Below are positions 10,545 through 11,344 of a DNA stretch of 40,995 bases, in pieces. Below the pieces are notes generated by a model. That model had not been told where the DNA came from, did not search any database, and was given only the letters and a program-made list of their open reading frames with translations. Within the stretch, counting starts at the first letter, position 1. Each line of letters starts with the position of its first letter. This DNA is from Enterobacteria phage FtMidnight: sequence record PP430152.1, one strand, 5' to 3'. The translations under genes and the position numbers were made by a program.

Positions 10545-10973
10545 ATGTCTGGACTGTTCAAGCAATTTAAGACCAACGCAACCAAAGAAGTTGAAGGCGT
10601 TGAAATTGAGTTCACCGAAGCAACCAATGATGACGGCTCTATTCCCACATTCATCATTTCCCGCATGGGCAAAAGCAACAAGGCTTATGCAAAGGCGCTG
10701 GAAGCTTCGACCCGCCCTTATCGCCGTCAAGTTGAACTTGGTACAATGAAAAACGAAGTTGCCGAAGGCTTGTTTTTGAATGTCTTTGTTGACAACGTGC
10801 TGAAAGGCTGGAAAAACGTACTTGATGAAGAAGGTAATGAAATTGCCTATTCCAAAGAAGCGGCTATTTCTCTGATGACCGCGCTTCCTGATGTTTACGA
10901 ACGCTTGCAGGAAGAAGCAAAACTTGCTTCTAACTTCCGTGATTTTTCGCTGGAAGCTGAAGCAAAAAACTAA
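10545..10973 (+). CDS. tail assembly chaperone (lambda gpG-like), in-frame product
   Basis: 142 aa; RBS GAGGT; acidic; ends one codon after slippery heptamer A AAA AAC; located between major tail and tape measure genes. Confidence 0.6.
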   Translation: MSGLFKQFKTNATKEVEGVEIEFTEATNDDGSIPTFIISRMGKSNKAYAKALEASTRPYRRQVELGTMKNEVAEGLFLNVFVDNVLKGWKNVLDEEGNEIAYSKEAAISLMTALPDVYERLQEEAKLASNFRDFSLEAEAKN

Positions 10974-11344
10974 TTGAAGTTCTGGCGCACCTGTTGGAGT
11001 TAGCCCCGCACGAACAGGCGATTGCAAAACAGGCTATGCGGGCGGGGCAAGCATTACCTGACCGCATAGCCAACGCACCAGAACTTCAAATTGGCTTACA
11101 GTTGTATTTGCAAGCCTTCTTTGATTTGGATTCGGAACGCTCACATTCAATGGGTGTAACCCCGATTCCTTGGAGTAGCATTGCAACTTATGCGCGGGCT
11201 TTTGAATTTGATGAAGAACAAACAGAAGACCTTTTTTATTTCATAAGGAAGCTTGACCAAGAACACACAAAGAAACTTGCGGAAAAACAAAAGGCGGCGG
11301 CAAAAAATGGCAAAAGACCTGTTAAGCCTAGCAGAAAGGCTTGA
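10545..11344 (+). CDS. tail assembly chaperone, -1 frameshift fusion product (gpGT-like); join 10545..10970 then -1 to 10970..11344
   Basis: the downstream ORF 10994-11344 lies exactly in the -1 frame reached from the slippery site with no intervening stop; classic G/GT arrangement upstream of the tape measure gene. Confidence 0.45.
10964..10970 (+). other. putative -1 programmed ribosomal frameshift site (slippery heptamer A_AAA_AAC)
   Basis: aaaaaac at 10964-10970 in X_XXY_YYZ register relative to the chaperone frame; the -1 frame is closed by TGA at 10958-10960 and open from 10961 to 11344. Confidence 0.5.

Follow-up and report, generated by a model that had tools for sequence, protein, structure and literature searches.

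Enterobacteria phage FtMidnight (PP430152.1) carries a two-frame tail assembly chaperone locus at 10545-11344 of the window, by which is meant the whole 40,995-nt stretch of DNA analyzed here, one strand, 5' to 3'. The locus consists of a chaperone gene, G, and a second segment, T, that lies in the -1 frame relative to G and begins at the last base of a slippery heptamer. Its features are as follows.

10533-10536, plus strand: Shine-Dalgarno sequence GAGG of gene G, 8 nt 5' of the G ATG
10545-10973, plus strand: gene G, encoding a 142-aa tail assembly chaperone by zero-frame decoding, with stop codon TAA at 10971-10973
10958-10960, plus strand: TGA in the -1 frame, read from the sequence, which closes that frame 5' of the heptamer; not conserved
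10964-10970, plus strand: slippery heptamer A_AAA_AAC, putative site of tandem -1 tRNA slippage
10970-11344, plus strand: T segment in the -1 frame, 124 codons plus stop TGA at 11342-11344, the C-terminal part of the predicted GT

The start of G has an anti-Shine-Dalgarno duplex energy of -6.9 kcal/mol, compared with a 5th percentile of -5.8 kcal/mol for all start-codon contexts in the window. At its 3' end, G reads GCA (10962-10964), AAA (10965-10967), AAC (10968-10970), and TAA (10971-10973), so that A_AAA_AAC lies in the X_XXY_YYZ register of the zero frame with the stop codon directly 3'. Scanning of the whole ORF (141 codon positions) returned this as the only in-register XXXYYYZ heptamer. 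The upstream TGA at 10958-10960 and the G stop together limit a productive -1 shift to 4 codons, and this permissible stretch is fully occupied by the heptamer. The placement of the heptamer is beyond chance: it is the sole in-register heptamer, it falls in a 4-codon window, and it is kept in 88 loci. The TGA itself is incidental because it is not conserved, even in the 98.8%-identical locus L022, which has CGA instead; it is also missing in Pseudomonas phage 73. A +1 shift was excluded, as the +1 frame is open for one codon only past the G stop.

L022 (IMGVR_UViG_3300028601_000007; 40,879 nt) is 98.8% identical to window positions 9470-12841. Near the slip site it has the same heptamer, a G stop of TGA rather than TAA, and GCC for GCT, which removes the upstream TGA.

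After a -1 shift, the first codon read would be CTA (10970-10972), and T would add 124 residues to give a predicted GT fusion of 266 aa. The predicted junction peptide is ...EAEAKNLIEVLAH..., also given as ...LEAEAKNLIEVLAHLLELAPHEQAIAK. The initial annotation had reported the 142-aa chaperone ORF, the heptamer at 10964-10970, and the closing TGA at 10958-10960, and all three were recovered here, the heptamer in the same register and at the same coordinates. Its spacing of one codon between heptamer and stop was not, since the heptamer abuts TAA directly. It also had the -1 frame open for 125 codons to 11344; the end point stands, but the count is 124 sense codons from CTA, and the fusion of about 267 aa is accordingly one residue too long.

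Profile searches assign both halves of the locus to one family. G matches the tail assembly chaperone family phrog_8233 over profile positions 4-140 of 271 (E=2.5e-43) and T matches it over positions 139-270 (E=1.5e-41); because the two match adjacent halves, the profile must have been built from fused proteins. G also matches phrog_313 (E=1.8e-31). T matches Pfam PF23812, Phage_TAC_18 (E=1.2e-27; 96.3 bits, cutoff 27), and phrog_3817 (E=4.8e-41), a 106-position family built from stand-alone T calls. The tail-assembly-chaperone fold is represented by the structures of HK97 (PDB 2ob9) and YqbN (3klu).

The neighboring genes belong to the same tail module, and profile searches also identified a head-closure gene and a tail terminator gene 5' of the tube gene.

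8935-10479, plus strand: major tail tube protein gene, 514 aa; Phage_tube_2 (E=1.8e-27) and phrog_290 (E=1.2e-74)
11307-11741, plus strand: tail completion / Neck1 (HK97 gp10-like) gene; phrog_169 (E=3.2e-41), with a weak HK97-gp10_like match
11747-15178, plus strand: tape measure protein gene, 1143 aa; TMP_3 (E=3.1e-46) and phrog_3336 (E=4.8e-237)

The major-tail and tape-measure assignments proposed earlier from the sequence alone are thus borne out by the Phage_tube_2 and TMP_3 matches, and the chaperone pair in turn corroborates both. The ATG of the tail-completion gene lies 38 nt inside the 3' end of T, and the gene separates T from the tape measure gene; the chaperone pair is therefore not directly 5' of the latter. 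This gene order is unlike the V-G-T-H order of lambda and recurs in every relative inspected. For Loki, too, an HK97 gp10-like gene has been noted as separating the chaperones from the tape measure gene (PMC5313236).

Two further features of the neighborhood concern the tube gene. The 266 positions of Phage_tube_2 are spread across residues 12-487 of the 514-aa tube protein, which therefore carries large insertions. These are possibly decoration domains, and residues 127-180 give a weak HiaBD2-like match (E=0.05). A terminator-like hairpin at 10493-10518 occupies the 65-nt gap between the tube gene and G. It consists of GGCCGG (10497-10502), a GTCAA loop, and CCGGCC (10508-10513), with an AAAA flank followed by TTTTT, and the Loki record has a rho-independent terminator annotated at the corresponding place. 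With this hairpin in place, the chaperone and tape-measure genes are probably transcribed less than the gene for the abundant tube protein.

The region has about 77% DNA identity to Septimatrevirus phages, including Pseudomonas phage 73, Kakheti25, DLP_1, and Samson. A tblastn search with the 266-aa fusion matched 288 phage records from many genera, and among the 60 matches listed, every match to both halves splits in two pieces. G is in the zero frame and T in the -1 frame in 21 of the 21 loci inspected directly. Curated records of Xanthomonas phage Samson, Rhodobacter phage RcHartney, Acinetobacter phage Loki, and Stenotrophomonas phage Siara have a joined (ribosomal slippage) CDS at the corresponding place. 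In many other GenBank records T is either missing or entered as a gene of its own, a "tail chaperonin" whose start varies from record to record. The T CDS is absent from the GZ35 record (L001), a reverse-strand hypothetical ORF covers T and the tail-completion region in JWT (L018), a reverse-strand ORF covers the tail tube gene in PAC1 (L003), and T is annotated only as a 46-aa fragment in Suba (L016). These four records appear to be mis-annotated.

Conservation of the slip site was surveyed in 21 GenBank and 80 IMG/VR loci, the latter scanned with a 6-sequence T alignment, which yielded 88 non-redundant junctions at 30-98% protein identity. The two-frame arrangement is kept in all 88, and 86 have A_AAA_AAC or G_GGA_AAC at the slip site. 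The forms at the homologous position are as follows.

A_AAA_AAC: 65 of 88 loci
G_GGA_AAC: 21 of 88 loci
G_GGA_AAT: 1 of 88 loci (L070, IMGVR_UViG_3300020027_000013, 1202-1208)
G_GAA_AAC: 1 of 88 loci (L065, IMGVR_UViG_3300036764_000020, 1495-1501)

Full re-pairing of the P-site codon is impossible at the G_GAA_AAC site of L065. The first base of the heptamer is the third base of the preceding codon, a position that is mostly four-fold degenerate. At A-type sites this codon always ends in A (GCA, GTA, TCA, GGA, ACA), and at G-type sites it always ends in G (GCG, TTG, TCG, CTG, CAG). As read from these alignments, the covariation at base 1 is what a requirement for P-site tRNA re-pairing (AAA to AAA, GGA to GGG) would impose, and not a coding constraint. 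A-type and G-type heptamers are interspersed among lineages, and both occur in the Septimatrevirus-like group (A-type in phage 73, G-type in Samson); the type must therefore have switched more than once.

The locus very probably uses a programmed -1 ribosomal frameshift of the lambda G/GT type to produce GT. Long-tailed phages rely on such a shift, made by few ribosomes near the 3' end of a chaperone gene, to obtain an extended fusion protein required for tail construction. The gpG/gpGT strategy named in the initial annotation gains comparative support from the two phrog_8233 halves, the flanking genes, the joined CDSs in homologues, the covarying slip site, and a T segment that appears to be without a start of its own. 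Most ribosomes would translate 10545-10970 and terminate at TAA 10971, releasing the 142-aa G. A minority would slip one base back with tRNA-Lys on AAA (10965-10967) and tRNA-Asn on AAC (10968-10970), which would re-pair with AAA (10964-10966) and AAA (10967-10969). Reading would then resume in the -1 frame at CTA 10970-10972 and run to 11341 to give the 266-aa GT, and the adjacent stop codon may contribute a pause.

If lambda is a guide, G itself and the G portion of GT would coat the tape measure protein, the T portion would recruit the tail tube protein, neither chaperone would remain in the virion, and the slip frequency would set the G:GT ratio. Slippage, its efficiency, and these protein-protein roles are what we infer from the locus and its relatives; efficiency is probably a few per cent or less. 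A low value is expected because no RNA stimulator was detected in the window and because A_AAA_AAC shifts far less readily in E. coli than A_AAA_AAG does (PMC5009743). Such a value would suit the needs of the system, given the ratio of about 30 G to one GT in lambda (PMC5009743). The literature yielded no protein-level account of GT for this phage or its clade.

The downstream stimulatory hairpin or pseudoknot suggested in the initial annotation was sought in the window by folding, RNAalifold, and local minimum free energy (MFE) rank and was not detectable. Two folded RNA segments gave z-scores of -0.10 and +0.84 against dinucleotide shuffles, with no hairpin or pseudoknot above background, and RNAalifold returned no consensus pairs on the 21 aligned junctions. 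The 45 nt 3' of the heptamer in the window have an MFE of -8.2 kcal/mol, which ranks at 0.48 against the local background. The sole local stem in the window, at 10981-10998, has 6 bp, three of which are G-U pairs. No stable hairpin or pseudoknot of the kind seen in dnaX, IS3, and coronaviruses was thus detected 5-9 nt 3' of the window's heptamer. A 6-bp pairing spotted by eye between CCTGTT (10989-10994) and AACAGG (11013-11018) was unremarkable in the folds and was dropped because its 18-nt spacer places it too far from a ribosome on the heptamer.

Across the family, 18% of the 88 loci have an MFE rank of 0.05 or less against local background. These loci have stems of -16 to -24 kcal/mol, all of which start 8 nt past the heptamer at GU[UC]CUG, which encodes Val-Leu. 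Their 3' arms lie at lineage-dependent distances, among others in Loki/IME_AB3, in NP1/JWT/L090-L100, and in L056/L068/L074/L083-85, and the stem-loops of the relatives are built in at least three ways on the common GU[UC]CUG 5' arm. The window and the phage-73 group are without a strong 8-nt-spaced stem. From their predicted folds, these stems seem to be candidate lineage-specific frameshift stimulators, present in some lineages and absent here. Upstream of the slip site, the 18 nt 5' of the heptamer have a family mean anti-Shine-Dalgarno energy of -4.4 kcal/mol, compared with -2.1 kcal/mol in the rest of G, and the window value is a weak -3.3 (GGAAG). Because conserved Glu codons and common descent confound this signal, a dnaX-like upstream Shine-Dalgarno stimulator was left unproven.

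The stop codon directly 3' of the heptamer suggests another route to the same product, in which peptidyl-tRNA-Asn alone would slip from AAC to AAA while the undecoded stop in the A site acts as the stimulator (a single-tRNA "shifty stop"). The window, 19 of 21 GenBank loci, and 63 of 71 IMG/VR loci have the stop right beside the heptamer; the AAAC-T core is invariant; the window has no detected RNA stimulator; and L065 keeps A_AAC despite the non-canonical first half of its G_GAA_AAC. Yet in 87 of 88 loci heptamer positions 1-3 are under selection that lets the upstream tRNA re-pair, which a single-tRNA slip would not need. The heptamer is also retained where the zero-frame stop comes one codon later (8 IMG/VR loci) or 13 codons later (the Yuavirus-type PAE1 and CN2), and in L043 the TAA stop of the window is replaced by TCA. 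The invariant T 3' of the heptamer additionally encodes the conserved Leu that opens the T protein. On balance, slippage of a single tRNA is unlikely to be how GT arises, and tandem slippage is preferred.

A broader scheme for the family is conceivable, though we hold it to be doubtful. The fixed slip module would be [A_AAA or G_GGA]_AAC with a T directly 3' of it, in most cases that of a stop codon, and an RNA stimulator would be optional and lineage-specific, so that the G:GT ratio is tuned as lineages gain or lose a hairpin, with the neighboring stop as the sole stimulator here. If true, the family would form a natural series for G:GT tuning, and the "shifty stop" contribution would be directly testable in the window.

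That G and T are instead two separate genes, with T translated from TTG 10994 or ATG 11036 and the heptamer a coincidence of Lys-Asn coding, is highly improbable. Both start codons are indeed present in the T frame, stand-alone T ORFs are annotated in relatives (phage 73 gp018 and the PAC1 "tail chaperonin"), and phrog_3817 derives from such calls. Neither start has a Shine-Dalgarno sequence: anti-Shine-Dalgarno energies are -1.5 kcal/mol at TTG 10994 and -2.9 kcal/mol at ATG 11036, compared with a window-wide start-codon median of -2.2 kcal/mol and with -5.8 to -7.1 kcal/mol at ten confirmed neighboring gene starts. The T-frame protein aligns from its first residue, L-[IT]-E-V-L-x-Y, in 22 of 22 loci, so that conservation begins at the slip site, 8 codons before TTG 10994 and 22 codons before ATG 11036. 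Compared with phage 73, the 22 codons 5' of ATG 11036 carry 7 synonymous and 2 non-synonymous changes, as read from the alignment. The first ATG, GTG, or TTG in the T frame occurs 3-48 codons past the slip site among the 22 loci, and NP1 and JWT have none for 44-48 codons. Near-identical genomes carry arbitrarily differing annotated T starts, and Lys-Asn coding leaves unexplained both the matching of base 1 and the alternation of K-N only with G-N. Comparison of these loci supports the view that T would be expressed only as an extension of G, without an independent start.

A second in-register heptamer, A_AAA_AAT at 11302-11308 (GCA AAA AAT in the T frame), shares bases with the ATG of the tail-completion gene. 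Slippage at this point into the -1 frame would extend the protein by just six codons, up to TAA 11323, and the site is probably coincidental, a product of the Lys-rich tail of T.

Productive transcriptional slippage in bacteria generally requires runs of about nine or more A or T. We give almost no credence to the idea that RNA polymerase adds one A on the A6 run at 10964-10969 in some mRNAs, which would put T in frame and yield nearly the same fusion by a route known as an alternative to frameshifting in some genes (PMC5009743), since about one quarter of the homologous loci have G_GGA_AAC, with homopolymers of 3 or less, and yet keep the two-frame layout, and since the exact in-register X_XXY_YYZ pattern suits tRNA re-pairing and not polymerase stuttering.

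With programmed -1 frameshifting as the preferred reading, the proper annotation of 10545-11344 is G (142 aa) together with a joined GT (266 aa; 10545-10970 plus 10970-11344) instead of a pair of separate genes. Records in the clade that have T wrong, by arbitrary starts, omission, or reverse-strand overprinting, can be amended by the simple correction rule that the 88-locus survey provides. The general understanding of frameshifting and tail assembly is unchanged by this finding.

The best-described homologous pair is gp12/gp13 of Acinetobacter phage vB_AbaS_Loki (Lokivirus), which is about 54% identical over the fusion. Loki shares with the window the AAAAAAC adjoining the G stop and the order of tube gene, terminator, G/GT, HK97 gp10-like gene, and tape measure gene, and its record has a joined CDS. 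Unlike the window, it has a stem-loop of -18 kcal/mol that starts 8 nt past the heptamer. The Loki paper of 2017 noted the AAAAAAC motif next to the gp12 stop and predicted a frameshift (PMC5313236). The closest named relatives are Samson (Samson_018/019; Septimatrevirus) and Pseudomonas phage 73 (gp017/gp018), with 77% nucleotide and 78-82% protein identity. Both have, like the window, a 142-aa G and a T of 122-124 codons. Samson has a curated "tail assembly chaperone frameshift product" and reads G_GGA_AAC TGA where the window reads A_AAA_AAC TAA, whereas phage 73 has GCA AAA AAC TAA as in the window. In phage 73 and most of its relatives, T is a separate gene or is unannotated.

Lambda G/GT resembles the locus in its -1 heptamer shift at the end of G, its slip-set G:GT ratio, and its location just 5' of the tape measure gene. 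Nor is lambda known to need an RNA stimulator. The strategy was reportedly established in lambda by Levin, Hendrix, and Casjens in 1993 and pursued by Xu, Hendrix, and Duda in 2004, and also in 2013 and 2014. The lambda G protein attaches to the tape measure protein, and T to the tube protein (PMC5009743).

Insertion sequence IS1 also resembles the locus, in that A_AAA_AAC fuses an upstream ORF to a -1 ORF in bacterial translation, but its proteins are unrelated and function in transposase regulation, and its stop does not adjoin the heptamer. IS1 frameshifting is mentioned in a review (PMC5009743). Sekine and Ohtsubo are said to have found the IS1 insA-insB' -1 frameshift on A_AAA_AAC at a low level of about 1% or less. 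Both the strategy and the Loki motif are already known, and the window adds an ordinary, well-supported further example.
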